The notes beneath the pieces are model-generated. The model searched no databases, was not told the origin of the DNA, and saw only the letters and a list, made by a program, of their open reading frames with translations. The position numbers were made by a program, and so were the translations under genes. A DNA stretch of 27,738 bases. Origin: an uncultured archaeon. Lineage in GTDB: Archaea; Iainarchaeota; Iainarchaeia; Iainarchaeales; 0-14-0-20-30-16. Shown in pieces: positions 7,771 to 22,460 of the stretch. Numbering within the stretch: the stretch's first letter is position 1; every line of letters starts with the position of its first letter. Location of the stretch: the NCBI GenBank assembly GCA_964595665.1, contig CAZQQS010000008.1, forward strand, positions 1 through 27,738. Reading direction: 5' to 3'.

Positions 7771-7775
7771 TTTTT

Positions 7776-8714
7776 ATGGATAATAAAGAAGTATTAAATA
7801 TTTTGGAAAAAGGTAAAGAATCTTTTAGGCCAGGACATAGAACTTGTGCTGGATGTTTTATTCCAACAATTGTTAGAACTGTTTTAGGAAATATTCCTAA
7901 AGGTTATTCTCCTGTTGTTTCAATTGCAACTGGTTGTTTAGAGGTTACGAGTACTTTATGGCCTAATAGTTCTTGGAATGTTCCCACAATCCATAATACT
8001 TTTGAGAATGCATCTGCTACTATTTCAGGTTCTGAAAAAGCACATTTAGTTAATGTAAAAAAAGGTTTGGAAAAACCGAATAAAAAATTTATTGTTTTCG
8101 CTGGAGATGGAGGAACAGTAGATATTGGATTAGCTGCATTATCTGGAACTCTTGAGAGAGGTCACGATATATTGTATGTTTTGTACGATAATGAAGTTTA
8201 TTCAAATACTGGTGCTCAAAGATCTGGTGCTACACCACATTATGCGAGTACTTCTACTACGCCTTCTGGTTCAGAATTATCTGGAAAAATTGAAATAAAA
8301 AAAGATATTATGAAAATTATTGCTGGACATAATATTCCTTATGTTGCTCAATGTAATCCTTATTTTTATGATGATTTTGTATATAAAGTTAAGAAAGCAT
8401 TTTCAATTAAAGGGCCTAAATTCTTAAGTGTTTTAATGCCCTGTACTTTTAGTTGGAAATTTGAAACTAATTTAACTGCTGAATTTTCTCGATTAGCTAC
8501 TGAAACAAATATTTGGCCATTATATGAGATTGAAAATGGAAAATATACTTTAAATTATTCTCCTAAAAAACCTTTAAAAGTAGAAGAGTTTTTGAATAAT
8601 CAAGGTAGATTTAAACATTTATTTAATCCTTTAAATAAAACTGCAATTAATAATGTTCAAAAAGAAATAGATTCTAAAATGAATGATCTAAAAGAAATAA
8701 GTAAAAAAAAGTGA
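7776..8714 (+). CDS. porB: Pyruvate:ferredoxin oxidoreductase, beta subunit (TPP-binding)
   Basis: GHRTCAGC, ATGC and MPC provide four Cys for the proximal [4Fe-4S] cluster. The TPP motif is FAGDGGTVDIGL...YDNEVYSNTG. The start is set at ATG 7776, because the track GTG 7767 is the GTGA Shine-Dalgarno. Confidence 0.92.
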   Translation: MDNKEVLNILEKGKESFRPGHRTCAGCFIPTIVRTVLGNIPKGYSPVVSIATGCLEVTSTLWPNSSWNVPTIHNTFENASATISGSEKAHLVNVKKGLEKPNKKFIVFAGDGGTVDIGLAALSGTLERGHDILYVLYDNEVYSNTGAQRSGATPHYASTSTTPSGSELSGKIEIKKDIMKIIAGHNIPYVAQCNPYFYDDFVYKVKKAFSIKGPKFLSVLMPCTFSWKFETNLTAEFSRLATETNIWPLYEIENGKYTLNYSPKKPLKVEEFLNNQGRFKHLFNPLNKTAINNVQKEIDSKMNDLKEISKKK

Positions 8715-8722
8715 AATAGCAG

Positions 8723-8733
8723 AATATATAAAG
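8723..8733 (+). promoter_or_regulatory. TATA-box-like element (aatatataaag) about 25 nt upstream of ATG 8753, implying a leaderless or near-leaderless mRNA
   Basis: It shares the core gaAATATATAAAG with elements at 12876-12887 and 19088-19099. The spacing to the start codon matches the usual archaeal TATA-to-TSS distance. Confidence 0.4.
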
Positions 8734-8752
8734 TTTAAGGCAATATATTATT

Positions 8753-9058
8753 ATGAATAAAGAAGAGCAAATGAATTATATAATAAAAAATAATTGTAAT
8801 ATTGAAGGGTTTAATTTAGATATTGATTCTGGTGTAGATATTGAATATTGGGCTAATTATTGTAGATCTAATCCTTTAGAAGCTAAACAACAACATTCTA
8901 AATTTATCAATTCTATTTATGAAAAACATGTTTCTTGGAAAAAAACTTTATTATCTAAATCAAATGGTGTAAAAATATTATCGGAATTGTATGATATTAG
9001 AAATCCCATTATTTTATATGAACTAACTGAGAAATCTAAACAATTACAAAAGAAGTGA
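8753..9058 (+). CDS. Hypothetical protein (101 aa, no recognisable motif)
   Basis: It is an ORF with its own TATA-like element. No family was recognised. Confidence 0.4.
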   Translation: MNKEEQMNYIIKNNCNIEGFNLDIDSGVDIEYWANYCRSNPLEAKQQHSKFINSIYEKHVSWKKTLLSKSNGVKILSELYDIRNPIILYELTEKSKQLQKK

Positions 9059-9062
9059 TTTT

Positions 9063-9323
9063 ATGATTTGGTTATATGTTTTGTTAGCATTTCTTTATGT
9101 TTGGATATTTTGTATTGCAATGTTTAGAGGTAAAAGAAATTTTCTTTTGTTTTATGTTTCTTTATTCTTGCCATTTGTGATTGTTGCTTTAGTTTTAATA
9201 TTGGCATTATTAATAGTATTTTTCCCGATAATTTATTTAGTTTTATTTATTTATTCTTTCTTTTCTCCATCTATGGAATTAAATTATGTTTTTAAAAAGC
9301 TTAACATAGGAAAAAAGAATTAA
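9063..9323 (+). CDS. Hypothetical small membrane protein (3 predicted TM segments)
   Basis: 86 aa and almost entirely hydrophobic (WLYVLLAFLYVWIFCIAMF, LLFYVSLFLPFVIVALVLILALLIVFFPIIYLVLFIY). It starts 4 nt after the previous stop. Confidence 0.4.
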   Translation: MIWLYVLLAFLYVWIFCIAMFRGKRNFLLFYVSLFLPFVIVALVLILALLIVFFPIIYLVLFIYSFFSPSMELNYVFKKLNIGKKN

Positions 9324-9733
9324 TTTTTTCTAAATCCTGATAAAAGTAATATTAATTCTTTTGTATTGAATGTAGGTATTTTAGTTTGTTCTTTAAGGTG
9401 TTTATCATTAGACCAAATAGGGTAGTTTAATTTTATTGCTAATGCTAAATAAGAAATATCTTTTTTATCAGATATATTTTCTTTAGCAAATTTTAATTCT
9501 TTATCATATATTTTTAGATCTAAGAATTCTACTTTTGATTTTAGATCTTTTATTAAATTATTAAAATTAGTTTGTTTTGTTTTTTCTAAAATTAATTCTT
9601 TATATTTGTTTAATTCTATTAATGCAAAATCTGGTGCAAATAATTTCAATTTAAATTCAGTTATTAGTTCGTTAGTTACGGAGTTAGGATTTAAAATAGA
9701 AAATAATATGTTTGCATCAGCAATTAATTTTAT
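9320..9733 (-). CDS. PIN-domain (VapC-like) toxin whose N-terminal catalytic region lies upstream of any canonical start codon
   Basis: The track ORF starts at TTG 9649. The same frame is open upstream and encodes (I)KLIADANILFSILNPNSVTNELITEFK, which carries the first PIN acidic residue in IADAN. Later PIN motifs are LIEL, DKKDISYLALA and IWSNDKHL. The 9733 end is the ATA codon that overlaps the antitoxin stop. Confidence 0.65.
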   Translation of the reverse strand: MKLIADANILFSILNPNSVTNELITEFKLKLFAPDFALIELNKYKELILEKTKQTNFNNLIKDLKSKVEFLDLKIYDKELKFAKENISDKKDISYLALAIKLNYPIWSNDKHLKEQTKIPTFNTKELILLLSGFRKN

Positions 9734-9972
9734 ATTAATCCCTTCTTTTTTATTGCTTTGGTAACATCTTTATTTACTTTTTTACCCATCTCAATAGTCC
9801 AAGATTCAAAATCTTTTTCTTTTTCTAATTTTTTTAGCATTTCTTCTTTCCAAGTTAATTCTGTAGTTTTTTCAATAATTGCTTTTTTTGCAACACCAGA
9901 CCAATTTATTTCAGGAAAATTATCCATGCTTTGCTTTACTTCTTCTGGAATAGATATAGTTATATTTACCAT
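9730..9972 (-). CDS. Ribbon-helix-helix (CopG/VapB-like) antitoxin
   Basis: 80 aa. The N-terminus MVNITISIPEEVKQSMD...INWSGVAKKAI fits a beta-strand plus helix RHH pattern. It lies directly upstream of the PIN gene, and an AGGTGA Shine-Dalgarno sits 5 nt before the ATG. Confidence 0.6.
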   Translation of the reverse strand: MVNITISIPEEVKQSMDNFPEINWSGVAKKAIIEKTTELTWKEEMLKKLEKEKDFESWTIEMGKKVNKDVTKAIKKKGLI

Positions 9973-10173
9973 AATATCACCTAATATAATATTTACACAG
10001 AAATATTTAAAAATATTCCCTTTCTTTAAACAATTCTAATTAATTTCTAGATTTAATTACTATTTATAAACTTTATTATATAATATATAATATATCCATT
10101 TGTGATTTTTGGGCGTTATTAAATAAATTTAATATCTGTTTTTAAGGGGATTTTTATATTTTCGACAAGAAAT

Positions 10174-10185
10174 GTATTGCAATAC
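10174..10185. promoter_or_regulatory. Perfect 12-nt palindrome gtattgcaatac flanked by direct cgacaa repeats, a candidate operator in the S-layer upstream region
   Basis: The local sequence reads ttCGACAAgaaatGTATTGCAATACGACAAcatt. Confidence 0.25.
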
Positions 10186-10246
10186 GACAACATTAATCGT
10201 AGAAAATACAAAATCCAAAAGATTCAAAACCTTAAAATAGCAAATA

Positions 10247-10254
10247 TTTATAAA
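10247..10254 (+). promoter_or_regulatory. Candidate TATA box (tttataaa) for the surface-protein gene, implying a leader of roughly 85 nt
   Basis: This is the only strong TATA-like element in the 120 nt before the GGAGAGGTGA Shine-Dalgarno at 10348-10357. An alternative TATA lies near 10150. Confidence 0.3.
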
Positions 10255-10362
10255 TGTAATCGTTTATTTAATAATAATGAGTTTGTTGGATGACTTTGCT
10301 GTAGTGGCAAAATCAGATGATGCAAATTCGCTCTTGATTTCATACAAGGAGAGGTGAAATAA

Positions 10363-12723
10363 ATGAAAGGACAATTCCTTAAGAAAATAACTGCTGTAGG
10401 AATGGGTTTAGCATTAGTTGCTGGGTCTGTTGTTGCTGCAGTAAATTGGTCTGATATGGTTGATGAAACTAATAAGACTATGAAAGTTAGTGGTATAGTT
10501 GTAGGTGCAAATGCTGACCCTATGGATAGTACTGCTGCTGGAAATTTAGCTGCTGCTTTAGCAAGTAAGTACAGCTACGATAAACCGACTACTGTAACTG
10601 AAACAGTTCCTGTTGAAGGTACTGCTGGATTATCTGCTGCTGATGCAAAATCTAAAAAAGAAACTGTAGGTTATAACGAATTCTCTATGACTAAAGCTCA
10701 ATTAACTGGATTTTTAAACGAATCTAGATCTATGGTTGTATCAGATGTTTCAAAAAGTGTTTACTTAAAAGAAGAAATGTTATTCAAAACAACTTCAGAA
10801 TACAACACATCTAAAACTGTTCAAGAATTAGTATCTGGCGTAACTGCAGGTAACTTTGAATATTTAGTAAATGTTGGATCTTCAGGTTTAGATTTGGATA
10901 CAAACGCTTATGAATCAGATAGTGAAAACTATATAACTATGCCATTTTTAGGTGAATGGTACGAGTTAGATGTTGCATCATCTACAGATAACAAAATAGA
11001 ATTAGTATCTGAAGGAGATAAAGACAACTGGTTGAACGAAGGTGAAACTGTTACTGGTTTAGCTTCTAAAGACGGAACTACAACTTATATGGTAAAAGTT
11101 GCTGATGCTTACACAGAAAATACTAGTAATTATGTAATTTTAGAATTATATGATGAAGCAACAAGTGCAAAAATTGCAACTGAAACTGTTGGTGCTGATG
11201 AAACTATAAGATTTAGAGCAAAAGGTAAAGAATTATTACAAGAAAGTATTAAAGTTAAAGAAATTGCAAAAAGAACAGTTTCAAGCTCAGATTCTTTCAA
11301 AGTAAACATTAGAACTGGATTAAACAGAGTTGTTTTGAAAGATGGTAAATGTTATCCTAACTTCGAAGACACAGCTTCAAAAACAAAATGTGATTGGAAA
11401 GCTAATGTAACTTTTACAACTGCTACTAATGTTTTAGAAAGTTATGGTGTAGAAACAACTAACACATACACAAGTTCTTCTGCTTTAAAAGTAAATGATT
11501 CTTTAGTATTACCAAACAATTATGGTGCTGTTCAATTCTTAGGATTAACTGCTGAAGATTCTTTTATGGCTACTTTCGGAACTTCTGTTGAAGGTGTTTC
11601 AGGTAATGCAAGCGATTACGGATTCTCATATTATGATGCAGATGATGTATTAAGAAGCGTTCCATACTATTTCTTAGAAGAAGGTATTCAAATTGATGCT
11701 GACTTACCAGAACCAGTTTATGTAACAGTAGATAATCAAGACTATACTTTGTTCTTACAAAGAGATGGTAACGATTTATTGTACTTAATTGAAGCTGGAG
11801 AAATAGATGAAAACACTGAAGCATTAGGTTCTTTAGATGTTAACTTCTTCTTAGATATTGAAGATGATATGAATGTATCTGACGCAATAACTTTCGGTGA
11901 AGGAGACGTAGATATGAATTACAATGTAATGTTATCTAACTACTCTGGATCTACAGATATCTATAACTTATGGTTAACTTTAGCTCCACAAACTTTTGAT
12001 ATGAAAGTTGGAACTTTAGAATTCATGGGTACAGATACTGATGAAAACATCGATAATAGTGTAGAAGCTGAATATTATATGGTTAACCACGAAGATTTCG
12101 TTATTGCAGATGTTGATGACGATGATTACTACTCAGCTTTATTCAATGTTGCTGATGTTAGTGGTGCTGATATAAATGTATTAGTTGATACAACTACAGG
12201 ATTATTGACTGCTGATGGAGATACAGAAAACGGAAATTCTTATGCTGTAATGTACGGTACTAAATCTTTAAGAACAAAAGTTGGCGAAAGAAAATTATAC
12301 ATTGATGAAAATGTATCTTTGGAAATAGTTGACGATGAAGTTTTAGAATTGTTAATTGCTGAAGATGTAAGAAGAGCTGAATACTTATTCTTCGATTCTA
12401 CAATGATAACTGCAGAAGGTGCAACAAAAGAAGTAACTACTACTAAAATGGTAAAAACTCCATATGCTGGTATGCCTACAGTTATGACTGATGTTGCTGC
12501 TGGTGCTGGTAACTACATAGTAGTTGGTGGATATGCGGTTAATAGCTTGTTTGCTGAAGTAGCTATTGATGCAACTGCTGCAGCTAAAGTTTTCGGTGAT
12601 GCTTTAGCTGAAGCTGGAAATAAAGTTACAAAAGTAATCAACGGTAGCTTATATGTTGCTGGATACACAAAAGAAGACACTATGGATGCTGTAAACGCAT
12701 TAATAGATGAATTAAATTTGTAA
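10363..12723 (+). CDS. S-layer-type cell-surface protein (secreted, acidic, Thr/Asp/Val-rich)
   Basis: The signal peptide is MKGQFLKKITAVGMGLALVAGSVVAA. The protein is 786 aa with no Cys-rich or enzymatic motifs. The C-terminus NYIVVGGYAVNSLFAE...LYVAGYTKEDTMDAVNALIDEL resembles the VVGGxxVN...AGYxxxDT module of archaeal S-layer proteins. It has a strong Shine-Dalgarno, a strong hairpin terminator, and base composition visibly richer in G+C than its neighbours. Confidence 0.65.
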   Translation: MKGQFLKKITAVGMGLALVAGSVVAAVNWSDMVDETNKTMKVSGIVVGANADPMDSTAAGNLAAALASKYSYDKPTTVTETVPVEGTAGLSAADAKSKKETVGYNEFSMTKAQLTGFLNESRSMVVSDVSKSVYLKEEMLFKTTSEYNTSKTVQELVSGVTAGNFEYLVNVGSSGLDLDTNAYESDSENYITMPFLGEWYELDVASSTDNKIELVSEGDKDNWLNEGETVTGLASKDGTTTYMVKVADAYTENTSNYVILELYDEATSAKIATETVGADETIRFRAKGKELLQESIKVKEIAKRTVSSSDSFKVNIRTGLNRVVLKDGKCYPNFEDTASKTKCDWKANVTFTTATNVLESYGVETTNTYTSSSALKVNDSLVLPNNYGAVQFLGLTAEDSFMATFGTSVEGVSGNASDYGFSYYDADDVLRSVPYYFLEEGIQIDADLPEPVYVTVDNQDYTLFLQRDGNDLLYLIEAGEIDENTEALGSLDVNFFLDIEDDMNVSDAITFGEGDVDMNYNVMLSNYSGSTDIYNLWLTLAPQTFDMKVGTLEFMGTDTDENIDNSVEAEYYMVNHEDFVIADVDDDDYYSALFNVADVSGADINVLVDTTTGLLTADGDTENGNSYAVMYGTKSLRTKVGERKLYIDENVSLEIVDDEVLELLIAEDVRRAEYLFFDSTMITAEGATKEVTTTKMVKTPYAGMPTVMTDVAAGAGNYIVVGGYAVNSLFAEVAIDATAAAKVFGDALAEAGNKVTKVINGSLYVAGYTKEDTMDAVNALIDELNL

Positions 12724-12736
12724 ATCCAAAAACCTG

Positions 12737-12775
12737 AGTTAGAGCGAAAGCTCTAACTTATTTTCTCTTTTTTTC
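12737..12775 (+). terminator. Hairpin plus T-tract terminator after the surface-protein gene
   Basis: agttagagc (12737-12745), a GAAA loop and gctctaact (12750-12758) form a 9-bp perfect stem. It is followed by tattttctctttttttc. Confidence 0.6.
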
Positions 12776-12776
12776 G

Positions 12777-12847
12777 ATATCCCTTTTAAACAAAAGGTCT
12801 ACAGTCTACCCCAAAGAAAGGGTATGTTTCGCTTTGCTCAAGCATAC
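12777..12847 (+). repeat. Three-hairpin intergenic module, copy A
   Basis: It starts with atatcccttt. HP1 pairs 12782-12787 with 12792-12797 (cctttt/aaaagg). HP2 pairs 12807-12811 with 12820-12824 (taccc/gggta) around the loop caaagaaa. HP3 pairs 12822-12829 with 12840-12847, where gtatg/catac extends through a G-U and two A-U pairs. Confidence 0.55.
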
Positions 12848-12875
12848 TGTATAATTAGTTTAATTTGTGGAAAGA

Positions 12876-12887
12876 AATATATATAAG
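12876..12887 (+). promoter_or_regulatory. TATA-box-like element (aatatatataag) upstream of the DUF4258-like gene
   Basis: The same core occurs at 8723 and 19088, and it lies about 23 nt before GTG 12905. Confidence 0.4.
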
Positions 12888-12904
12888 ATATTTGTGTTTA
12901 TTTT

Positions 12905-13249
12905 GTGAAATTAATTGATAATGTTGCTAAACAAAATCTATTTTCTAAAATAAAGAATTTTGATATTAACTTTACTAAGCATGCATTATTAAGATTAGAA
13001 CAATCTTCTAGGGTGTATACAAAAGAAGACGTTTCTAGTTTGTTTAAAGCTATTTCTAAATATAAAATAGAACTTTTCTTAGAAAAAGAGAATGTTTATC
13101 ATATTATTTTTATATTTTCAAAACGTAAGGCAATAGATGTTGTTTTTAAAGTTAATGGGCTTATATTAATATTAACGGTATTTCCTTTAGGTAGAAAATC
13201 ATTATTAAAAATATGTAAAAAAATGGGGTTAGATTATGATAAAATATGA
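12905..13249 (+). CDS. DUF4258-like putative toxin
   Basis: INFTKHALLRLEQSSRVYTKEDV and ...LILILTVFPL follow the DUF4258 pattern (FTxHAxxRxxxRxI...vITv). It uses a GTG start and overlaps the downstream DUF2283 gene by 14 nt. Confidence 0.5.
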   Translation: MKLIDNVAKQNLFSKIKNFDINFTKHALLRLEQSSRVYTKEDVSSLFKAISKYKIELFLEKENVYHIIFIFSKRKAIDVVFKVNGLILILTVFPLGRKSLLKICKKMGLDYDKI

Positions 13250-13577
13250 TTATGATTTGGAAAATGATATTTTAAATGTGAATAAATCTAAAGTATTTGA
13301 GAGTATTGAATTAATTGATGGTTTCTATATTGATTTGGATAATAAAAAAAATATTGTTGGTATAGAGTTATTATCCGCATCTAAAATTTTATCAAAATTA
13401 TCTTTTGGTAAAATAAATAAATCTTTTTTGGAAGATTTAAATTTTGTTTCATTAGATATATCTAAATATAGAAATGGATTCATTCTAAAATTGAGTTTTG
13501 AAACAAATGGTAAAAAACAAGATGTTGCTGTGCCAATATATGATTTATACGCTAATCAAAATGTTGTTACAGTTTAA
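13236..13577 (+). CDS. DUF2283-family protein (putative antitoxin partner)
   Basis: MIKYDYDLENDILNV...GFYIDLDNKKNIVGIELLSASK matches the DUF2283 pattern YDxExDxLyi...D.d..G.ivGIEil.as. Confidence 0.6.
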   Translation: MIKYDYDLENDILNVNKSKVFESIELIDGFYIDLDNKKNIVGIELLSASKILSKLSFGKINKSFLEDLNFVSLDISKYRNGFILKLSFETNGKKQDVAVPIYDLYANQNVVTV

Positions 13578-13601
13578 ATATCTTTTTAATATTCATTTTA
13601 T

Positions 13602-13904
13602 ATGAATAAAAAATTAATCGTTTTAATTATCTTAGTTTTTATAATTCTAATTTTTAGTTTATATCCAAAATTTAATGAACTGAATATTAAACAACAAATA
13701 GAAAAAGCAAATTATTGTGATGCAAATTCTGATTGTATTAATTTAGGACAAAAATGTCCTTTTGGTTGTTGTATTTATGTTAATGTAAATGAAGTAGATA
13801 AACTCTCTAACTTATTACTAGCTTATAACTCAAAATGTGTTTACGGTTGTTTAAGTTGTGAAAAAGTAATTTGTGAAAATAAAAAGTGTAAGGAAATAAT
13901 TTAA
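13602..13904 (+). CDS. Small membrane-anchored or secreted Cys-rich protein
   Basis: It has an N-terminal hydrophobic segment LIVLIILVFIILIFSLY. This is followed by 10 Cys in about 60 aa (CDANSDCINLGQKCPFGCC...CVYGCLSCEKVICENKKC). Confidence 0.45.
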   Translation: MNKKLIVLIILVFIILIFSLYPKFNELNIKQQIEKANYCDANSDCINLGQKCPFGCCIYVNVNEVDKLSNLLLAYNSKCVYGCLSCEKVICENKKCKEII

Positions 13905-13958
13905 ATTAGTTAAGATAACTTTAAATAACTTTAGGTTATTTATTATTTAGTGATGTTT

Positions 13959-14219
13959 ATGGGTGCTGTAACTTTAAATTTGAAAGTAACTGATTATAGT
14001 AATCGGGTTTTAGGTGTAGTAAAAGAAAAATATGGTTTTAAAGATAAATCTCAAGCTTTAAATAAGTTATTAGATTTATATGGTCAAGATTTTGTGGAAA
14101 AAGAAGTAAAAGAAGAAGTAATAAAAGACATGTTAAATTCTTGTAATACTCATATTAAAAAATATGGCTTTAGATCTAATAATTTGGCAGATTTAAAAAA
14201 AGAGTTGGAAAGTGAATAA
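13959..14219 (+). CDS. Putative antitoxin (DUF2683-like)
   Basis: GAVTLNLKVTDYSNRVLGVVKEKYGFKDKSQALNKLLDLYG resembles the small archaeal antitoxin family found upstream of RelE. The start is set at ATG 13959, with an AGTGA Shine-Dalgarno at 13948-13952. The stop directly abuts the toxin ATG. Confidence 0.5.
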   Translation: MGAVTLNLKVTDYSNRVLGVVKEKYGFKDKSQALNKLLDLYGQDFVEKEVKEEVIKDMLNSCNTHIKKYGFRSNNLADLKKELESE

Positions 14220-14498
14220 ATGTTTAATTATGATTTGTCAGATGAATTAAAACAGCAATTAAAATTATTATTTAAAAAAAATAAATCTTTGTATTCTATA
14301 ATCTTAAAAAAAATTGAACAAATTATTATGCAAGATAATGAGACTATAAACCATTATAAAAATTTAAGATATGATTTATCTGATTGTAAAAGAGTTCATA
14401 TAGATAAATCTTTTGTATTATTGTTTAAAGTATATCTTGATAAAAATTTTATTTTATTTTATAAGTTTGATCATCACGATAATATTTATAAATTTTAA
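14220..14498 (+). CDS. RelE/ParE-superfamily toxin
   Basis: 92 aa. YKNLRYDLSDCKRVHIDKSFVLLFKVY...ILFYKFDHHDNIYK is the typical RelE/YafQ-type C-terminal pattern (R.hi...fvl.f......i.f..f.HHD.iY). Confidence 0.65.
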   Translation: MFNYDLSDELKQQLKLLFKKNKSLYSIILKKIEQIIMQDNETINHYKNLRYDLSDCKRVHIDKSFVLLFKVYLDKNFILFYKFDHHDNIYKF

Positions 14499-15604
14499 AT
14501 TTTATTTCCTATGTTGTCGCTTAATCTATTTATTTGTTCTTTAATAGTTTCTGCAAGTTTTTCAGATATGCCTGATTTCTTAGCAATTTCTTTACTAGGG
14601 GTAGATAAGATAGTAAATAAATATCCTAAAGAGTTTACTAATTTATCAATATTTGTTTTACTTAATTTTGGAATCTTAGATAATAATCTATAACCTTTTA
14701 CAGATACTAAGCTTTCAATTTTGTCTGAAGGTATTTGTAATATTCCAGAGATTATATCTTTATCAATATTATTTTTGTTAGAATATAATTCTTCAATTAT
14801 GTTTTCTATACTTATGTCGTTACGAGAATAATCTAATAATAATAAACTTAATTCTTTTCTCAAACCAGAAGTATTTTCTTGCAAAGAATGTTTTATTTGA
14901 GTGCCTTCTACACCTAATTCAATAATTATTTCTTCTAAATCTAATTTTGATTTTTCTAAATACAATATTTTTAATAATATTTTTATGGCATCTAAATAAG
15001 TTGTATTATTATTTAATTCATAATAAGTTAATTCATTTAACATAGCATTAATTTGTGTTCTATAATTTGCTATGGTTTTCAAATAATGATCTGCTTTTGT
15101 TGTTAAGTATGGTAAATCGTGTAAAACATAATGTTCTTGATTGTAATATAATGAAATAATATTTCTTCTTTTTGAAATAGCTACAACAGGTAATCCTGTT
15201 TGTTTAGCAGTTTGTTCTCCACTTCTATGTCTTATTCCAGTTTCTTTTGATTCTATATTTCTATCTGGTGTTAAATGAACGTTTGCATATGCAATTTTCT
15301 TTAAATCATTAGATAATACTATTGCACCATCCATTTTACATAATTCAAATAAAGTAGAAGAATTCATTTCAGTATTAATTTTTAGGCCACCTCTTAAAAC
15401 ACCCTCTAAACTGATGTTTGTGCCTAAAACTACTAATGCACCCATTTGTGCTCTTAAAATCTCATCTAAAGCAACTCTAATCTCAGTTCCTGGAGATATT
15501 AAAGTCAATATTTCATAGATGTTCATATCTTGTTTTATACCTTGAACTTTGGCATAATTTATGTCGGGAAAAATGTCTTCTATAATGTCTTCGAACTTGT
15601 CCAT
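14495..15604 (-). CDS. disA: DisA-type diadenylate cyclase (DNA integrity scanning protein)
   Basis: SPGTEIRVALDEILRAQMGALVVLG, the DGA motif in KMDGAIVLS and the RHR motif in ETGIRHRSGEQTAKQTGLPVVAISKRRNIISLY are all present. A C-terminal helix-hairpin-helix follows (KGYRLLSKIPKLS...KKSGISEKLAETIKEQI). The protein is collinear with bacterial DisA over its full length. Confidence 0.9.
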   Translation of the reverse strand: MDKFEDIIEDIFPDINYAKVQGIKQDMNIYEILTLISPGTEIRVALDEILRAQMGALVVLGTNISLEGVLRGGLKINTEMNSSTLFELCKMDGAIVLSNDLKKIAYANVHLTPDRNIESKETGIRHRSGEQTAKQTGLPVVAISKRRNIISLYYNQEHYVLHDLPYLTTKADHYLKTIANYRTQINAMLNELTYYELNNNTTYLDAIKILLKILYLEKSKLDLEEIIIELGVEGTQIKHSLQENTSGLRKELSLLLLDYSRNDISIENIIEELYSNKNNIDKDIISGILQIPSDKIESLVSVKGYRLLSKIPKLSKTNIDKLVNSLGYLFTILSTPSKEIAKKSGISEKLAETIKEQINRLSDNIGNKI

Positions 15605-15684
15605 GAAATCACTTAATTATATATTCTGCTAAAATATATATAGATTTCGTGTAAACATATCTCGAGTAAACATAACAATCTCTT

Positions 15685-15693
15685 TTTATATTT
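15685..15693 (+). promoter_or_regulatory. TATA box (tttatattt) for the RNase P RNA gene
   Basis: It is centred about 25 nt upstream of the first base of the predicted P1 helix at 15714. Confidence 0.5.
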
Positions 15694-15713
15694 AATGTAA
15701 TATATTTTTTTAT

Positions 15714-15951
15714 TAGTAGTAGGCGATTGGCTTTCGGTTTTAAACTGAGGAAAGTCCGCCCATTCCTATAGAGTAATTGTTTTGAGAGAAACTAGATTTG
15801 TATACAGAAAAGCACCTTTTTAGGTTTACTATGATATTAAACTTGAGATGCCTAAAAACTCGTTGAAATTAGCAAATCACTCTGGAATGCAAGCATACGC
15901 GCTTAGATCAATGCCAACTAAAAACAGAAGGCGGCTTACGGCCTACAACTA
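15714..15951 (+). ncRNA. rnpB: RNase P RNA (short, about 238 nt)
   Basis: CR-I is GAGGAAAGTCCGCC at 15747-15760, CR-IV-like AGATCAATG at 15905-15913 and CR-V ACAGAAGGCGGCTTA at 15924-15938. P4 forms between AAGTCCGCC and GGCGGCTT with the conserved bulged U. P1 pairs tagtagtaggc (15714-15724) with gcctacaacta (15941-15951), 11 bp with one mismatch. Confidence 0.85.
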
Positions 15952-15997
15952 TATCCTTTTATAAAATTTCTGTTATTATTATATTAAAGTGGTATTT

Positions 15998-16246
15998 ATG
16001 GGATTTGTAGATTATAATTTGTATGCAATAATTAGGGATCAAATAAAAAATTCTGATGATTATTTGGATATGAAAAAATTAAATTTAAAATTAACAAAAT
16101 TTGATACTTCTTTAATACAACAAACTGTTGATTATTTAATTAAAAGTAATAAAGTAATACTTTCAAAAGATAAAAAATTAATTTGGGTATTTGCAGATAC
16201 ATCTAAATCAAAGAGATTATTAAAAGAGTGTGTTAGGGTTGCATGA
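15998..16246 (+). CDS. Hypothetical small protein, putative antitoxin (wHTH-like) of the downstream RelE/ParE-like gene
   Basis: 82 aa from ATG 15998, because the track GTG 15989 sits in AAGTGG, the Shine-Dalgarno. It overlaps the following toxin-like ORF. No confident family was recognised. Confidence 0.4.
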   Translation: MGFVDYNLYAIIRDQIKNSDDYLDMKKLNLKLTKFDTSLIQQTVDYLIKSNKVILSKDKKLIWVFADTSKSKRLLKECVRVA

Positions 16247-16583
16247 AATTCATTTATCTAAGGAATTTAATAAAGAATATGTAAAAATCCAAGCTTTGGC
16301 TGAAAAAGGAAAACAAGAAGAAAAATATTTATTAGGTTTGATTTCAAAGGCTATTTCTGTTTTATCACAAGATAAAGAAGCTGGTAAGAAAATTCCTAAG
16401 AAATTGTGGCCTAAAGAGTATATTATTAAATATGATATAACTAATTTATGGAAATATAATTTAGATACTTATTGGCGATTAATTTATACTATTTCTGGTA
16501 ATGAAATACAATTTTTTTTAATATGTTTAGATTTTGTGGATCATAAAGAATATAATAAAAAATTTAATTATTCTTCAAGATAG
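16230..16583 (+). CDS. RelE/ParE-superfamily toxin-like protein
   Basis: The C-terminal NLWKYNLDTYWRLIYTISGNEIQFFLICLDFVDHKEYNKKF follows the pattern ...L...wRliY.i.....i.i..i..HkeY. The start is uncertain (GTG 16230 or TTG 16239). Confidence 0.55.
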   Translation: MLGLHEIHLSKEFNKEYVKIQALAEKGKQEEKYLLGLISKAISVLSQDKEAGKKIPKKLWPKEYIIKYDITNLWKYNLDTYWRLIYTISGNEIQFFLICLDFVDHKEYNKKFNYSSR

Positions 16584-16584
16584 A

Positions 16585-16657
16585 AGCTCTGTGGTGTAGT
16601 GGTCTATCATTCAAGGTTCTGGTCCTTGAGACCTGAGTTCGAATCTCAGCGGAGCTA
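16585..16657 (+). tRNA. tRNA-Gln (anticodon CUG)
   Basis: The cloverleaf reads AGCTCTG-TG-GTGT-AGTGGTCTA-TCAT-T-CAAGG-TTCTGGT-CCTTG-AGAC-CTGAG-TTCGAAT-CTCAG-CGGAGCT-A. The A1-U72 pair and the GGTGTAGTGG..TATCAT D-arm are typical of archaeal tRNA-Gln. CCA is not encoded. Confidence 0.9.
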
Positions 16658-16725
16658 TCCTTTCTTTTTAGAAAAAAGAAAGCCTAAGTTTGCCAAAGAA
16701 AAACTAAGTGCTATTAAAATAGCAC
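16658..16725 (+). repeat. Three-hairpin intergenic module, copy C (directly 3' of tRNA-Gln)
   Basis: HP1 pairs 16660-16668 with 16674-16682 (ctttctttt/aaaagaaag). HP2 pairs 16684-16691 with 16701-16708 (ctaagttt/aaactaag, one mismatch) around the loop gccaaagaa. HP3 pairs 16708-16713 with 16720-16725 (gtgcta/tagcac). Confidence 0.5.
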
Positions 16726-16733
16726 AATATGTT

Positions 16734-16985
16734 TTAATATTTTTTTACTTCTTCTAAAATGAATTTTCCAAAATCAGTTAGCTCATATAATTTGAATCCT
16801 ACATAACTAGGGTTTAGACATTTAACCAAATCTTTTTTTATTAAATCTTTTAATGCTCGACTTATTGTGGGCAAATGCGTATTAATGTCTTTGGCTAATT
16901 GATTTGCATTTTTTGGTTTAATTAAATTCAAAATTATGGCCTTTCTTACCTTTCCTCTTAATACAAAAATCACTAATTCGTTCAT
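16734..16985 (-). CDS. Small winged-helix (ArsR/MarR-like) transcriptional regulator
   Basis: 83 aa. The HTH is NANQLAKDINTHLPTISRALKDLIKKDLV and the wing is YVGFKLYELTDFG. An inverted repeat aaatgct-N12-agcattt lies in its upstream region at about 17015-17040. Confidence 0.6.
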   Translation of the reverse strand: MNELVIFVLRGKVRKAIILNLIKPKNANQLAKDINTHLPTISRALKDLIKKDLVKCLNPSYVGFKLYELTDFGKFILEEVKKY

Positions 16986-17195
16986 TTAATATTGGAATAG
17001 CAATATATTTATAAATGCTTTGCAATAGGTTAGCATTTAGTTATCAAATTTAAGAATTATGCCGTAAAATAGAGTATAAGTAGTAAGTGAAGTTCACTAT
17101 GAAAATTAAATAATGAATAGAGGAATTATAGGGGGTGGGTGCTCAAAATCGAAAAGTTTTTATATTCTAATACATTTTGTATATCAGGTGATTAA

Positions 17196-17657
17196 ATGGT
17201 TGCTAAGAAAAAGAAAGTTACAAAAGTAGCTGTTAAAAAAGAAGCAATAAAAAAAGAAGTTGTTAAAAAAAGTGTTAAGTCTAAAAAACAAGTAAAACCT
17301 GTAAAGGTTACTCCTATTGTTAAAAAACCAATTGAGCATGTTGAACATAAAGCTCCTATTGAACACAAAGAACATAAAGAGCAAAAAGAAGTAAAGAAAT
17401 CAAATGCTATAGGTTTGGTTGGATTCATATTGTCTATTGTAGGATTTGTTTCAATGATTATTCCTATATTAGGTCCATTAATATCTTTAGTTGCTGGAGT
17501 TCTATGTGGAATACAAATTAAAAAACATTCTAATGGTTTGGCTATTGCAGGATTAATTATAGCAGTTATAGGTTTCTTATTAGGAGTTTATATTACAATA
17601 ATTGCTTTTTTAGTTTTAGCAAGTTTGGGCTCAATGAATACCCCAATGGTTTATTAA
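17196..17657 (+). CDS. Membrane protein with a Lys/His-rich repetitive N-terminal tail and a DUF4190-like two-TM C-terminal region
   Basis: The N-terminus is KKKKVTKVAVKKEAIKKEVVKK...PIEHVEHKAPIEHKEHKEQKE. The C-terminus is GLVGFILSIVGFVSMIIPILGPLISLVAGVLCG...LAIAGLIIAVIGFLLGVYITIIAF. An AGGTGA Shine-Dalgarno precedes the ATG. Confidence 0.5.
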   Translation: MVAKKKKVTKVAVKKEAIKKEVVKKSVKSKKQVKPVKVTPIVKKPIEHVEHKAPIEHKEHKEQKEVKKSNAIGLVGFILSIVGFVSMIIPILGPLISLVAGVLCGIQIKKHSNGLAIAGLIIAVIGFLLGVYITIIAFLVLASLGSMNTPMVY

Positions 17658-17685
17658 TTAAACCATTCTTTTTTTTATTTTTTTT
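17645..17685 (+). terminator. Hairpin plus long T-tract terminator
   Basis: aatggttta (17645-17653), loop ttaat and taaaccatt (17659-17667) form the hairpin, followed by cttttttttttatttttttt. The hairpin spans the stop codon of 17196..17657. Confidence 0.55.
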
Positions 17686-17698
17686 AGGAGGTTTATCT

Positions 17699-18094
17699 TT
17701 GGAAGAATCTATTAAAAGAAATATATTCAGAAAATGTTTAGTTTGTGGAAAAAGAAAAAAAATTGTGCAATATAAAGATGGTTATTGTAAGGGTGCTAAA
17801 TATTTTGGAATTATAGAAGATTCTATTGCAAATACTGGGGAATATGTTAAAACAGGTACTTTTAAGTTTGGTAAATTGAAAATGAATGTTGTTAAATGGA
17901 CTGGTAAAATAAGAAAATTTGAATATTGGGAATGTGAAGATTGTTATAATGAGGGAATCTTTGAATTTACTTTAAAAAATAAAATAGAAAAGATATATGG
18001 TCCAAGATGTAAAGATTATAATAAAGATTGTATAGTGTGTCTGGCTTGGGCAATATATGATACAACAATAAAAGATGATAGATGTAAATTATAA
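17699..18094 (+). CDS. Cys-rich hypothetical protein (probable zinc-ribbon)
   Basis: It uses a TTG start 7 nt after an AGGAGG Shine-Dalgarno (17686-17691). Cys pairs are CLVCG ... CEDC ... CKDYNKDCIVC. Confidence 0.4.
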   Translation: MEESIKRNIFRKCLVCGKRKKIVQYKDGYCKGAKYFGIIEDSIANTGEYVKTGTFKFGKLKMNVVKWTGKIRKFEYWECEDCYNEGIFEFTLKNKIEKIYGPRCKDYNKDCIVCLAWAIYDTTIKDDRCKL

Positions 18095-18101
18095 TGTTTT
18101 T

Positions 18102-18638
18102 TTATTTATCTAAATAAATATCTAAATACATAGGCAAAGTACCTTTGTATCTTTCTTTTAATGTTTTGAATCCAAATTTTTTATAAAAATGTACTGAATC
18201 TTTTAAATGATCTTGATTCCTTTTTGCATCTAGAATTAAAAATCTACAACCAACATAATTTTGACTTATTTTGAAGGTTAAATGTACAGAATATTTTAAA
18301 ATGGCTTTTCCAACACCTTGTTTTTGAAAATTATTATCTACTGCCAATCTACCAATTTTTATTGCTGGCAAAGTTTTGTAGAGAATATCTTTATTTTTGA
18401 AAAATTCTCTTAGTTCTCCTTCTAATCTTAAAGTATCGGTTAATAAAGTAACATATCCTACAAGATTATTTTCTTTGAAAAATAAGTATGTTTTAGATAT
18501 CCCTTGTTTTTGGTTTTCTAAAGAATCTTCTTTTAGAAAATTAGTTAATTCTTGTTCATAACAATTAAAATTAGAAATAGAATTCAAATGTTTTTCAGAT
18601 ATTACTTCTATTTTAAGTTCTTGCAGAATGTCTTGCAT
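18102..18638 (-). CDS. GNAT-family acetyltransferase of the TA-toxin type (TacT/AtaT/KacT-like)
   Basis: The acetyl-CoA motif is RLAVDNNFQKQGVGKAIL. The N-terminal FNCYEQELTNFLKEDSLENQKQGISKTYLFF..NLVGYVTLL matches the FxCGxxxLxxFL... pattern of GNAT toxins. The start is set at ATG 18638, with an AAGTGA Shine-Dalgarno, and the track GTG 18647 lies inside it. Confidence 0.6.
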   Translation of the reverse strand: MQDILQELKIEVISEKHLNSISNFNCYEQELTNFLKEDSLENQKQGISKTYLFFKENNLVGYVTLLTDTLRLEGELREFFKNKDILYKTLPAIKIGRLAVDNNFQKQGVGKAILKYSVHLTFKISQNYVGCRFLILDAKRNQDHLKDSVHFYKKFGFKTLKERYKGTLPMYLDIYLDK

Positions 18639-18804
18639 TAGCTTCACTTAATAATTTGTCTAAGATTGCTTTATCTTTTTCAACAGATCTTATAAATGCT
18701 ACTCTTTCTTTAGATGGGTGTTTAATTTCTTCTAACCATTCTTTTACAAACTTTCTAGCATCTTCGCCTCGTAATACAGGTGTTGCTCTAATTGGTTTAG
18801 CCAT
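18613..18804 (-). CDS. Small putative antitoxin partner of the GNAT gene
   Basis: 63 aa, MAKPIRATPVLRGEDARKFVKEWLEEIKHPSKERVAFI. It lies immediately upstream of the GNAT gene and overlaps it by 26 nt. An AGTGA Shine-Dalgarno is present. Confidence 0.45.
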   Translation of the reverse strand: MAKPIRATPVLRGEDARKFVKEWLEEIKHPSKERVAFIRSVEKDKAILDKLLSEANARHSART

Positions 18805-18911
18805 AATAAATCACTAAATATAAATATTATAAAAATTAATATATATGCTATGTTTATGCATATTTAAATCTTTTGATTTAAAAAGTTGTGGCTTTAAGAC
18901 AGAAAGTATTA

Positions 18912-18983
18912 AGCCACTTGAGGGATTTGAACCCCCGGCCAGCTGCTTACAAGGCAGCTGCTCTACCGCTGAGCTAAAGTGGC
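18912..18983 (-). tRNA. tRNA-Thr (anticodon UGU)
   Basis: The reverse complement folds as GCCACTT-TA-GCTC-AGCGGTA-GAGC-A-GCTGC-CTTGTAA-GCAGC-TGGCC-GGGGG-TTCAAAT-CCCTC-AAGTGGC-T. CCA is not encoded. Confidence 0.9.
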
Positions 18984-18985
18984 AC

Positions 18986-19066
18986 TATATCCCTTTCTTT
19001 TCCAAAAGAAAGGTCTGAAGTTCACCCCAAAGAAAAGGTGCTTCGCTTCTTATTAAATAAAATAAG
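18986..19066 (+). repeat. Three-hairpin intergenic module, copy B
   Basis: It starts with tatatcccttt. HP1 pairs 18992-18999 with 19006-19013 (cctttctt/aagaaagg). HP2 pairs gaag-tt-cacc (19017-19026) with ggtgcttc (19037-19044) around the loop ccaaagaaaa. HP3 pairs cttatt (19049-19054) with aataag (19061-19066). Confidence 0.55.
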
Positions 19067-19087
19067 TATATTATATAATTTATAGGA

Positions 19088-19099
19088 AATATATATAAA
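19088..19099 (+). promoter_or_regulatory. TATA-box-like element (aatatatataaa) upstream of 19143
   Basis: The gaaatatatataa core is shared with 12876 and 8723. An AGGTGA Shine-Dalgarno lies at 19133-19138. Confidence 0.4.
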
Positions 19100-20596: not shown

Positions 20597-22279
20597 TCAC
20601 TCAAAAAATTCATCTAATTTTTTATTTTTGGTTTTCTTTTTAGAAAAATCATCTTCCTCTTCTATATTTTCTTCATCATCATTTTCAAAAGTTTTTTTAC
20701 TTATCTTTTCAATATCTTCTTTTTCTTTTTCCAATTTTTCATTTAATTTATTTAATTCTAATTTTTCATCAATTAGTTTTTCTAATTTTTCAACAACTTC
20801 TTTTTTATCTAAACCCAACATTTGATGTAAAAAGAAAGCTATTTCTAAATTATATTTTGCAAACATTCTTTTTGTTTCTAAACCAATATTTACTTTGTGC
20901 TTTCTGGAAATGTGTGTTGAAATAGCACGAGCAACAGTCATTATTGCTAATTTAATTTCATCAATAATTTCTTGCTCATCAGCAACAGCTTGTTTTCCTA
21001 CATTAGTATAAGGAATATGAACAGAACTTAAATTAATTAATATTGTTATGGGACTATTATCAAAATCTTTTATATTATATCTTTTCCATTCCATAGCATT
21101 TATTGCAGAAGTGATTGCACATGCTCCTTGATCAAATAATAATGGAGTTCGATTAGAGAATCTCATAGTTTCTGATTTTAAAGAACAGTCTTTTAATTTT
21201 CTACCACAGTTTCCTCCATAAGCAATTGCACAATCAATTTGGAATGGAAATCCACCTTTATAAGTAGTTGGTTTTCGTGTAATAACATGTAAACTTTCGG
21301 GTTTTAATATGCTTGTAATTGAAGCTTTTAATTGTTCTTCGCCAATAGGTATTATTGCATCTGTTCTAGGAGCTATTGTTTTTATTTTTTGTATTGCCTT
21401 AACAATTTTTTCAGAAATATTAAAATCAATATTTCTTTTAGTAACCTTTTTCAAATCTAAATCTTTCAAATTATTTTGTAATTCTTTAATAAATTTATCG
21501 CCAGTTCTATCAAAATTCTCTTTTATATGTGCTATAACAGAATTGTTATTAGATGCTCGAAAACTATTCAAAAATAAATCAGTATTAACACTTTTAATAT
21601 GTGGTTTAACTTCTATAGGAATCTTAGGTAAAGTAGTAACAGATCTTTCAAAAATATGTATTTTTTCAAACGGGTCTAAATATTTTATAGTTACATGAGG
21701 ATTTGCTAATGCTGTTCTTTTTAAATATTCAAAAGCATTTTGATTACTATCTTGATAATCTATTTCTTTAAATTCTGCTGATATAGCTAATCCTTTAAAA
21801 TCTTTTTCAATATATTTTAAGTTTTTTAACTCGGGTTCGTTTTTTGCAACATTTATTCCTAATTCAGCATAAAATACTTTTCCTTTATTTCCAGAAATAA
21901 CTTTTACAATTTTTCCTGTAGTCATTTGACTAAATAATATACATCCAGAAGCCCCAATTCCTTGTTGGCCTCTCATTTGAATTTGTCTATGAAATTTTGT
22001 TCCAGCTAATAACTTTCCTAATGCTTTTCCAATATTTTGTTCTGATAACCCTGGACCATTATCAATAACGTGAACTTCAAAATGTTCTTCACCTAATTTA
22101 ACTATTTTAACCTCAATCTCTGGTAAAATATTATTTTCTTCACAGGCATCAATAGAATTAGCAACAAACTCATGTACTATAGTTGTTAAAGATCGTAATT
22201 TTCCATACAAACCTAACATGTGCCTATTTTTTTTAAAGAATTCTGCAACTGAATGCTCCTTTAAGTTTGACTTTTCCAT
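20597..22279 (-). CDS. top6B: DNA topoisomerase VI subunit B (GHKL ATPase)
   Basis: The N-box is HEFVANSIDA, G1 is VIDNGPGL and G2 is RGQQGIGASG. A transducer domain follows, and then a highly charged Lys/Glu/Asp C-terminal tail. Confidence 0.92.
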   Translation of the reverse strand: MEKSNLKEHSVAEFFKKNRHMLGLYGKLRSLTTIVHEFVANSIDACEENNILPEIEVKIVKLGEEHFEVHVIDNGPGLSEQNIGKALGKLLAGTKFHRQIQMRGQQGIGASGCILFSQMTTGKIVKVISGNKGKVFYAELGINVAKNEPELKNLKYIEKDFKGLAISAEFKEIDYQDSNQNAFEYLKRTALANPHVTIKYLDPFEKIHIFERSVTTLPKIPIEVKPHIKSVNTDLFLNSFRASNNNSVIAHIKENFDRTGDKFIKELQNNLKDLDLKKVTKRNIDFNISEKIVKAIQKIKTIAPRTDAIIPIGEEQLKASITSILKPESLHVITRKPTTYKGGFPFQIDCAIAYGGNCGRKLKDCSLKSETMRFSNRTPLLFDQGACAITSAINAMEWKRYNIKDFDNSPITILINLSSVHIPYTNVGKQAVADEQEIIDEIKLAIMTVARAISTHISRKHKVNIGLETKRMFAKYNLEIAFFLHQMLGLDKKEVVEKLEKLIDEKLELNKLNEKLEKEKEDIEKISKKTFENDDEENIEEEDDFSKKKTKNKKLDEFFE

Positions 22280-22460
22280 ATTAATACCTTTATAAATAAA
22301 ATGTGGAAAGGGTTTATAAACCTTTAAGGATTTATTTTCTGAGTGAGAATATGGGTTTAGGGAATTAATAACAAAATATATACAAAAGAATATTACTAAG
22401 ATTGTTAATTATTTATTTCTAAAGGTAAAATTAAATGATTTAATTTCTTAAAACTTAAGA

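Follow-up and report, generated by a model that had tools for sequence, protein, structure and literature searches.

A candidate family of intrastrand triple helices at tRNA exon boundaries in DPANN-type archaea

The closest described systems

Motifs in which a single strand may fold back on itself into a triple helix have been described as 'potential intrastrand triplex' (PIT) elements by Hoyne, Maher and co-workers (2000) and as the class II motifs TMECO and ITxF by Holder et al. (2015; PMC4666352). TMECO, which consists of a pyrimidine block, a purine block and a mirrored purine block (Y-R-R'), forms a DNA triplex in vitro (PMC4666352). Here we examine a stretch of 27,738 nucleotides from an uncultured archaeon (contig CAZQQS010000008.1 of assembly GCA_964595665.1, positions 1 to 27,738 of the forward strand), the whole of which is called the window, and three intergenic modules within it (copies A, B and C), which a preliminary description had presented as arrays of three hairpins (HP1, HP2 and HP3). 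We consider it probable, though by no means assured, that A, B and C are members of a large A/T-rich family of intrastrand triple helices, with the same Y-R-R' layout as TMECO, located at the removable parts of tRNA units in DPANN-type archaea.

Like TMECO and PIT elements, the modules carry on one strand a pyrimidine arm, a loop, a purine arm, a second loop and a mirrored purine strand, with a pyrimidine-type motif on the complement, and they are repeated, intergenic and present at loci that vary between close relatives. TMECO, however, is G/C-rich (CCCTCNCCC...) and proteobacterial, with second loops of 3 nt and no reported tRNA link, whereas the present family is A/T-rich and mainly archaeal, has a second loop of 8-16 nt that is partly paired, and is tied to tRNA exon boundaries and introns. 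Published triplex searches would miss the family because this second loop exceeds their limits, given in PMC4666352 as 1-6 nt for ITxF and 0-10 nt for Hoyne et al.

A second comparison is offered by the tRNA introns of Thermoproteales, families of which have been read as 'intron transposition' (Fujishima et al. 2010, summarised in PMC4090602) and copies of which, on that account, are tolerated because the splicing endonuclease removes them. The present family likewise has related sequence in different tRNAs and at different positions, but it is of DPANN type, its conserved part is the triple-helix motif, and its range extends to 5' leaders, 3' trailers and, with copy A, a site away from any tRNA. 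A third parallel lies in the eukaryotic or viral ENE elements and the MALAT1/MEN-beta RNAs, in which a 3'-end triple helix is followed by the tRNA-like mascRNA; the A-rich tract of MALAT1 is the 3' end of a long functional RNA. At the level of sequence only, the minus strand of B and C has the same order of U-rich, U-rich and A-rich tracts, with a single C+.G-C-compatible position interrupting the U.A-U run and an RNase P site just downstream, but the upstream RNA is here often just a leader, and most copies face the other way (purine type).

Resemblances are also evident to repetitive extragenic palindromic (REP) sequences, bacterial interspersed mosaic elements (BIME) and miniature inverted-repeat transposable elements (MITE), which are short, structured, multicopy intergenic repeats with covarying stems, occur singly or as inverted pairs and are gained and lost at strain level. 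Here, in contrast, no terminal inverted repeats, target-site duplications or associated transposase were seen, and the mirror rule of the third strand has no REP counterpart. RNA triple-helix classes have been reviewed (PMC13541005), and the searched passages of such reviews contain no element of this kind. No literature was found on this family, or joining the triplex class with tRNA introns, and the family is apparently undescribed. The earlier view that no described element matches the modules therefore stands for the family and its tRNA link but not for the structural class, which is known in bacteria (PMC4666352).

A mirrored, putative third strand

The modules share a constant order, in which a variable short helix (P0) is followed by CC, a pyrimidine (Y) arm, a loop of 2-4 nt, a purine (R) arm, GG, a linker of approximately 8-16 nt, a second CC and a purine strand. 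The Y and R arms form HP1 as originally proposed, and the distal purine strand, far from being a hairpin loop, repeats the purine arm of this hairpin in mirrored order. The mirror relation was first noticed in variant copies lying outside the search pattern, where changes in the arms are accompanied by mirrored changes in the distal strand (Y arm, R arm and distal strand, respectively: TTTTTTCTTTT, AAAAGAAAAAA and AAAAAAGAAAA; TTTTCTCTT, AAGAGAAAA and AAAAGAGAA; TCTTTTCTTTTTC, GAAAAAGAAAAGA and AGAAAAGAAAAAG). The fetched related contigs contain 416 asymmetric Y/R hairpins. In 69 of these the purine core is perfectly mirrored no more than 28 nt downstream, compared with 8 that have a direct copy, 4 that have an upstream mirror and 10.4 obtained with shuffled cores. 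The rule is followed by 36 distinct arm sequences, and when perfect mirrored purine pairs are taken as the starting point (n = 269), the Y arm is a flawless Watson-Crick partner in 134 and has 1-2 mismatches in only 5.

Three consecutive blocks Y-R-R on one strand, as expected of class II, are present in B, C and 135 family modules, and the second block is perfectly complementary to the first in 134 of 139 modules (9 bp in B, 10 bp in C and 6 bp in A). The R arm of C (A5GA3) is mirrored by its third strand (A3GA5), with 9 matches as a mirror against 8 of 10 as a direct copy, and that of B (A4GA3) by A3GA4, with a mirror match of 8. The first loop is as short as class II demands, and the second, mostly 12-15 nt from the mirrored core, is too long. 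A mirror repeat is neither produced by the copying of either strand nor able to offer equivalent arms to a duplex-binding protein. A triple helix is the simple physical rule behind it. As judged from base order, the plus-strand layout is that of a purine-motif triplex (A.A-T and G.G-C triads, third strand antiparallel to the purine arm; class II of Hoyne/Holder), and the complementary strand, on which a Hoogsteen pyrimidine strand is followed by a linker and the hairpin, reads as a pyrimidine-motif triplex (U.A-U and C+.G-C triads, parallel third strand; class IV), a motif that is established for RNA. The motif CCAAAGAAA would thus be conserved as the third strand of a triplex and not as a loop, and we infer that the triple helix is actually formed.

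HP1 is usually lengthened by P0, a covarying helix in which nucleotides 5' of the Y arm pair with the start of the linker (e.g. TGACA/TGTCA or TACCA/TGGTA), and the covariation score of the stem extension was reached by none of 500 shuffles. The proposal of a selected structure rather than a drifting AT-rich spacer is supported. The loops are purine-rich on the module strand, GNRA/UNCG loop motifs were uninformative for choosing the RNA strand, and wobble-pair asymmetry as a test of that strand suffers from too few mismatches (2 T:G versus 3 C:A).

Within the window CCAAAGAAA occurs three times, each time within A, B or C, where 0.74 occurrences are expected by chance and at least three were seen in 2 of 100 shuffles; A and B are 81% identical across 36 nt. 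A covariance model trained on 104 related modules, with which the window was searched with filters off, returned three full-length matches only, all on the plus strand (B at 18985-19043 with 58 bits, C at 16652-16709 with 47 bits and A at 12773-12827 with 37 bits), so that the three same-strand copies first reported are confirmed by sequence and model alike. No Rfam family matches the modules, whether the gathering score or an E value of up to 5 is applied. Two degenerate relatives had also been suggested, but the region at 25254-25279 holds a short hairpin only (E ~0.08 on both strands), the model found nothing at 22290-22325, and the supposed signature leader TATCC(C)TTT, as TATCCYTTT alone, is not above chance in the window.

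Distribution, placement and turnover of the modules

A composite 26-base pattern was drawn from the features common to B, C and the B orthologue (CTTTCTTTT-N2-8-AAAGAAAG-N8-16-CCAAAGAAA) and it matched at least 120 contigs of the metagenome collection, compared with none of 2.9 million viral contigs, which bears out the expectation of relatives in other DPANN-type genomes. Many of these contigs contain several additional copies per 10 kb according to the covariance model. A stricter pattern derived from A and B (AGTNNACCCCAAAGAAANGGT) had 17 bacterial matches in species-representative genomes, the number expected by chance. The related metagenome contigs are denoted by L-numbers, of which those most used here are L020 (an 85% relative), L021 (82%), L145/L146 (79%) and L149/L150 (75%).

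The hairpin of a module lies 2-16 nt from a tRNA exon boundary, be it the 5' end, the 3' end or a splice site, and the third strand points away from it. Of 135 modules collected independently of the pattern, 16 lie no more than 25 nt from a tRNA end, and 15 of these follow the rule (10 in the 3' flank in tRNA sense, 5 in the 5' flank in antisense, 1 in the opposite configurations), and a relaxed pattern gave 17 versus 0. In introns, all 19 same-sense modules have their hairpin side 5-13 nt from the 5' splice site, and all 5 antisense modules have theirs at most ~16 nt from the 3' splice site. All five antisense modules share their intron with a same-sense one, meaning that long introns hold an inverted pair, and single intron modules are always on the 5' exon side. 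C and B conform to the rule, with the C hairpin 2-3 nt past the 3' end of tRNA-Gln and the B hairpin 8-9 nt from the 5' end of tRNA-Thr, of which B on the minus strand would form the ~60-nt 5' leader. All three window copies lie outside tRNAs rather than within a tRNA gene bounded by splice sites; many of their metagenome relatives are introns.

The tRNAs that bear modules include Ser, Leu, Thr, Ala, Tyr, Lys, Pro, Gly, Arg and others, and both the anticodon loop and the T loop (L061) are affected. When the segment around the module was deleted, a tRNA emerged at 23 of the 85 modules that had no other assignment and at 8 of 166 random control positions, and this recovery reveals non-canonical introns. 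One tRNA of L061 (~4180-4420, anticodon TCG by eye) has an anticodon-loop and a T-loop intron, each with its own module and with differing arms. The tRNA-Ala of L089 carries three modules, two intronic and one in the trailer, and the same contig has no open reading frame (ORF) of at least 130 aa across the 6 kb from 6000 to 12000, a region that holds at least five modules, these three among them, and adjoins a tyrosine recombinase gene (12012-12836).

The window copies share details with such introns. The linker and third strand of C recur in a near-identical version in the tRNA-Tyr intron of L105. The HP3 hairpins of A, B and C exist as claimed but are mutually unrelated, and the HP3 loop of A (TTTCGCTTTGCTCAAG) is also found directly 3' of modules in tRNA introns of L030, L075, L093 and L116, on different stems. 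Copy A also has an enclosing helix (ACAGT/ACTGT) as in those intron modules, and from the shared loop and helix it is apparently a whole intron-type element outside any tRNA. More generally, a hairpin with a conserved 14-16-nt loop (TTTCGCT-N2-GCTCAA(G)) on variable stems was seen in the window at 12827-12842 and in L030, L066, L075, L093 and L116, usually directly after a triplex module.

Modules are gained and lost between close relatives. B is present in L020 with a different linker, one that is common to modules at other tRNAs (L046, L096), and it is absent in L145/L146, where 24 nt separate the end of the conserved promoter block TATATAATATAC from tRNA-Thr. In the window this block ends 82 nt before the gene and in L020 farther still, with the module in between in the three-way alignment; these distances identify B as an insertion between the tRNA-Thr promoter and its gene, and no target-site duplication was found at the insertion junctions in the comparison with L145. 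Transcription of tRNA-Thr is predicted to start at about 19040-19047 on the minus strand, and B is most likely transcribed as the ~60-nt leader, essentially as a pyrimidine-type module. The near-palindromic block GAAATATATATAAAG is a possible promoter of the plus-strand gene 19143, and it is conserved in L020, where that gene is absent. The L020 tRNA-Thr (10836-10955, window orientation) has a ~45-nt anticodon-loop intron that ARAGORN misses without its intron mode.

C is absent from the tRNA-Gln trailer of L021, and L143 retains its T-rich Y arm only. The gap between RNase P RNA and tRNA-Gln is 16-25 nt in these two relatives (L021 13940-14330, L143 650-882), where the two are likely a co-transcript; in the window a two-gene ParE-like toxin-antitoxin cassette (15989-16583) stands between them, its stop codon 1 nt before the tRNA, and the 3' side of the RNase P RNA reads TATATCCTTTTATAAAA, similar to the module leader. 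A, together with five small downstream genes, stands where L021 has a 170-nt spacer. Between orthologues the core arms are identical and the linkers have diverged (B versus L020; L027 versus L028).

The coordinates of the modules and their surroundings are collected in the table below. The contexts given at the outset are correct, namely A after the terminator of an S-layer gene (PF05124), C after tRNA-Gln and B beside the 5' end of tRNA-Thr. G+C content is approximately 25% across the window, which, besides topoisomerase VI A and B and the S-layer protein, encodes pyruvate:ferredoxin oxidoreductase and has several small genes of toxin-antitoxin-like type. For its topoisomerase VI A (TopoVI-A) protein, the best relatives with a name are in metagenome genomes of 'Candidatus Diapherotrites', Micrarchaeota and 'ainarchaeum', which marks the source as a DPANN-type archaeon. 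An exact-sequence look-up of two window proteins returned no record.

Table. Positions of the modules, their parts and neighbouring features in the window
Feature	Position	Strand	Remarks
Archaeal RNase P RNA	15715-15950	+	
tRNA-Gln (CUG)	16585-16657	+	
tRNA-Thr (UGU)	18912-18983	-	no intron in window copy
Copy B, full module	18984-19046	+	fold; 58 bits; L020 orthologue; insertion by alignment
B pyrimidine (Y) arm CCTTTCTTT	18992-19000	+	
B loop	19001-19004	+	
B purine (R) arm AAAGAAAGG	19005-19013	+	
B linker	19014-19026	+	
B CC	19027-19028	+	
B mirrored third strand AAAGAAAA	19029-19036	+	
B GCTTCGC	19040-19046	+	
Copy C, 3' trailer of tRNA-Gln	16658-16725	+	fold z = -4.7; 47 bits
C Y arm CTTTCTTTTT	16660-16669	+	
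C loop AGA	16670-16672	+	
C R arm AAAAAGAAAG	16673-16682	+	
C linker CCTAAGTTTG	16683-16692	+	
C CC	16693-16694	+	
C third strand AAAGAAAAA	16695-16703	+	9/9 mirror of AAAAAGAAA
C unrelated hairpin GTGCTAT/ATAGCAC	16708-16725	+	
Copy A, decayed, no adjoining tRNA	12777-12852	+	lowest model score (37 bits)
A shortened Y arm CCTTTT	12782-12787	+	then loop AAAC
A R arm AAAAGG	12792-12797	+	mirror rule broken here
A enclosing helix ACAGT/ACTGT	12801-12805 with 12846-12850	+	
A CCAAAGAAA	12811-12819	+	
A hairpin GTATG/CATAC	12822-12826 with 12843-12847	+	conserved loop TTTCGCTTTGCTCAAG 12827-12842
TATATAATATAC, predicted TATA box of tRNA-Thr promoter	19066-19077	-	three-way alignment
GAAATATATATAAAG, near-palindromic TATA block	19087-19099		reads TTTATATA on - strand

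Some further features of the surroundings were noted. The S-layer gene end (12737-12775) has a 10-bp hairpin with a GAAA loop (GAGTTAGAGC-GAAA-GCTCTAACTT) followed by TTTTCTCTTTTTTT, and L021 keeps this T-rich tail with a different hairpin sequence. Small toxin-antitoxin-like or accessory genes (PIN_2, DUF2283, ParE-like, GNAT) are unusually dense around the copies (9320-9972, 13236-14498, 15989-16583 and 18102-18647), most of them without a counterpart at the same place in the 82% relative. The product of the topoisomerase VI B gene of L149/L150 (655-4014) has 1119 residues, among them an intein that bears a LAGLIDADG domain, and the window gene (20597-22279) has no intein.

Two other recurring structures were seen in the metagenome contigs. 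One is a discrete element of ~105-150 nt with the same core (GCGAAAAC-CTTTCTTTT-loop-AAAAGAAAG-GTTTTCGC-GCTTT-CCAAAGAAA, followed by a 16-bp covarying hairpin), which is carried by L024, L042, L054, L072, L074, L079, L088, L128 and others, at least six of these contigs being from sample Ga0154466. In L074, where one copy lies at 5870-6040, it has bacterial neighbours (an extracytoplasmic function (ECF) sigma factor, type II secretion F and an HtrA-like protein), no Rfam match and no nearby tRNA. The other is a block, GGAAGAGG-TTTAGAAA-GGAGAAACC-loop-GGTTTCTCC, that recurs downstream of modules in L034, L050, L064, L073, L091, L051, L108 and L142, and may be a second triplex-type element, of class I, in which the third strand precedes the hairpin at the 5' side; only ~6-7 nt match as a mirror.

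Weighing the explanations

If A, B and C do belong to a family of intrastrand triple helices, the family would occupy those parts of tRNA units that are later removed, that is 5' leaders, 3' trailers and introns, and insertions there would be tolerated since they are cut away by RNase P, RNase Z or the splicing endonuclease. Selection would act on a compact and nuclease-resistant triple-stranded fold, self-contained and beside the processing site, which might keep flanking low-complexity sequence off the tRNA and cap the released pieces of RNA. B could then be regarded as an insertion in the tRNA-Thr leader, C as the tRNA-Gln trailer and A as a decayed intron-type copy stranded after the S-layer gene.

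A number of observations weigh against this interpretation. The counts do not represent independent events, since many members of the family derive from related genomes, and about half of the modules have no detectable tRNA nearby. A related element is found in a bacterial genome away from tRNAs, and the tRNA link is not universal. In tRNA-sense transcripts the purine type outnumbers the pyrimidine type (29 versus 10 modules), the stability of a purine-type module as RNA is doubtful, and Semerad and Maher (1994) are said to have found the purine motif restricted to DNA. Copy A breaks the mirror rule and has a shortened hairpin, in keeping with its lowest model score. The linker of 8-16 nt, partly paired in P0 or P2, exceeds that of characterised intrastrand triplexes, and neither the CC that precedes the third strand nor the GG that follows the purine arm makes canonical triads. 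Finally, no transposase domain was present among 20 scanned window ORFs between 4960 and 19511, and no mechanism of spread was identified.

An alternative that we regard as unlikely, drawn by analogy with MALAT1/MEN-beta, is that an RNA triple helix acts as an end-protecting or processing aid coupled to tRNA cleavage, and would thus be the archaeal counterpart of those 3' ends. RNase P cleavage would leave an RNA end buried in a U.A-U/C+.G-C triple helix. The pyrimidine strand of the modules runs from a U-rich Hoogsteen strand through a linker, a U-rich strand, a loop and an A-rich tract to the tRNA (or antisense tRNA) 2-11 nt further on. This is precisely the order seen in the B leader, which stops 8-9 nt short of the RNase P site, with the TopoVI-A gene ending just upstream on the same strand in L020, and C is within the 3' untranslated region of a winged-helix gene (16985-16734, minus strand). 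The retention of core arms between orthologues as linkers diverge would also fit, as would the perfect, wobble-free Watson-Crick arms, which suit triad geometry. Yet modules are lost in close relatives without obvious replacement, the purine type prevails among tRNA-sense copies, and the RNA protected at B is merely a ~60-nt leader of no known use. There is also no strand bias of modules relative to gene ends (33 versus 31 within 150 nt), and for this reason an mRNA 3' untranslated-region element was rejected as well.

It is quite unlikely, in our judgement, that the modules act as DNA only, as a non-B structure (a single-stranded class II triplex, or H-DNA plus a cruciform) arising while DNA is replicated or, where tRNA genes are heavily transcribed, on the displaced strand. 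Polymerase stalling would then promote rearrangement, as proposed for the TMECO of E. coli, and spread and turnover would be by-products of recombination. For DNA the triplex of the purine motif is well established, rearrangement between strains is greater at TMECO loci (PMC4666352), and placement is mirror-symmetric about the tRNA, as a DNA-level feature would be. All three window copies are, moreover, at the edges of segments that differ from relatives: A with its five small genes against the 170-nt spacer, C with the ParE-like cassette between RNase P RNA and tRNA-Gln, and B with an adjoining 122-aa gene that is absent in L020. What such a structure leaves unexplained is the spacing of 2-16 nt between hairpin and exon boundaries, both splice sites included, and the polarity of the intron copies, in which single modules are always at the 5' exon side. 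The loops are purine-rich on one strand, and footprinting by Holder et al. (PMC4666352) revealed no stable triplex in vivo.

The preliminary description itself centred on a three-hairpin RNA or single-stranded DNA module, with a conserved HP2 loop on covarying stems and alternative HP2/HP1 folds, and this now seems very improbable. HP2 can form in A (ACCC/GGGT) and B (GAAG..CACC/GGTGCTTC), the HP2 stem of C contains an A-A mismatch, and a minority of members have a 5-10 bp stem of differing sequence around the motif. However, the L020 orthologue of B retains CCAAAGAAAA where no HP2 stem is possible, and a stem of at least 5 bp around the motif is found in 13% of 107 family members against 6% in shuffled controls, a weak enrichment. 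The proposed competition of the HP2 loop with the 5' arm of HP1 fails on the asymmetric variants, which carry the mirror and not the direct copy, leaving G and C out of register and so excluding alternative Watson-Crick pairing, and the lack of homology among the HP3 hairpins tells against the model too.

A chance likeness of low-complexity T-rich archaeal terminators and A-rich spacers is barely credible, for although the window is A/T-rich, T-runs follow RNA genes (with a fourth TATATCCTTTT just past the RNase P RNA at 15950-15960) and L143 has the T-rich arm alone after tRNA-Gln, the composite pattern contrasts metagenome with viral contigs, the mirror rule spans 36 arm variants, and copies lie inside introns, where a terminator would do harm.

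The position of copies within introns equally excludes a plain terminator, the inadequacy of which had been anticipated. Several other identities were considered and rejected. For a small ORF or pseudogene fragment, A and B translate alike for ~15 codons, but the frame is lost past the motif. Origin-recognition boxes disagree with the copies in spacing and orientation, and the surroundings contain no Orc1/Cdc6 gene. Integron attC sites or gene cassettes are excluded by the RNase P RNA and tRNAs in the segments between copies and by the absence of the R-box consensus, and C/D or H/ACA guide RNAs by the absence of boxes and of a guide pocket. An integrated element with attachment sites here was rejected, as the copies are outside tRNAs and not identical. 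Also set aside were a protein site on double-stranded DNA and the ends of an HUH/IS200-type element, since the mirror repeat is not arm-equivalent in any duplex orientation and the 20 scanned ORFs include no transposase.

Taken further, the triple-helix reading leads to a bolder proposal, which we put forward tentatively as a possibility. A natural triple helix kept by three-way compensatory evolution might be a standard block of pre-tRNA leaders, trailers and introns in DPANN archaea, serving either as a cap coupled to RNase P, RNase Z or the endonuclease (a prokaryotic MALAT1 counterpart) or as the structure by which a new kind of mobile archaeal intron is recognised, one that has relatives in bacteria and inserts outside tRNA genes as well.

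To our knowledge, selected triple helices have rarely been seen beyond a handful of riboswitches, telomerase RNA and viral or long non-coding RNA elements. Here dozens of variants keep a three-strand rule that no copying mechanism yields, which is comparative evidence for triple-helix formation in vivo, and direct testing is feasible with oligonucleotides of 45-60 nt. Many of the host tRNAs that bear modules are missed by standard tRNA finders. Because the family is tied to tRNA exon boundaries, it links non-B structure in nucleic acids with tRNA processing and with the unsolved spread of archaeal tRNA introns.

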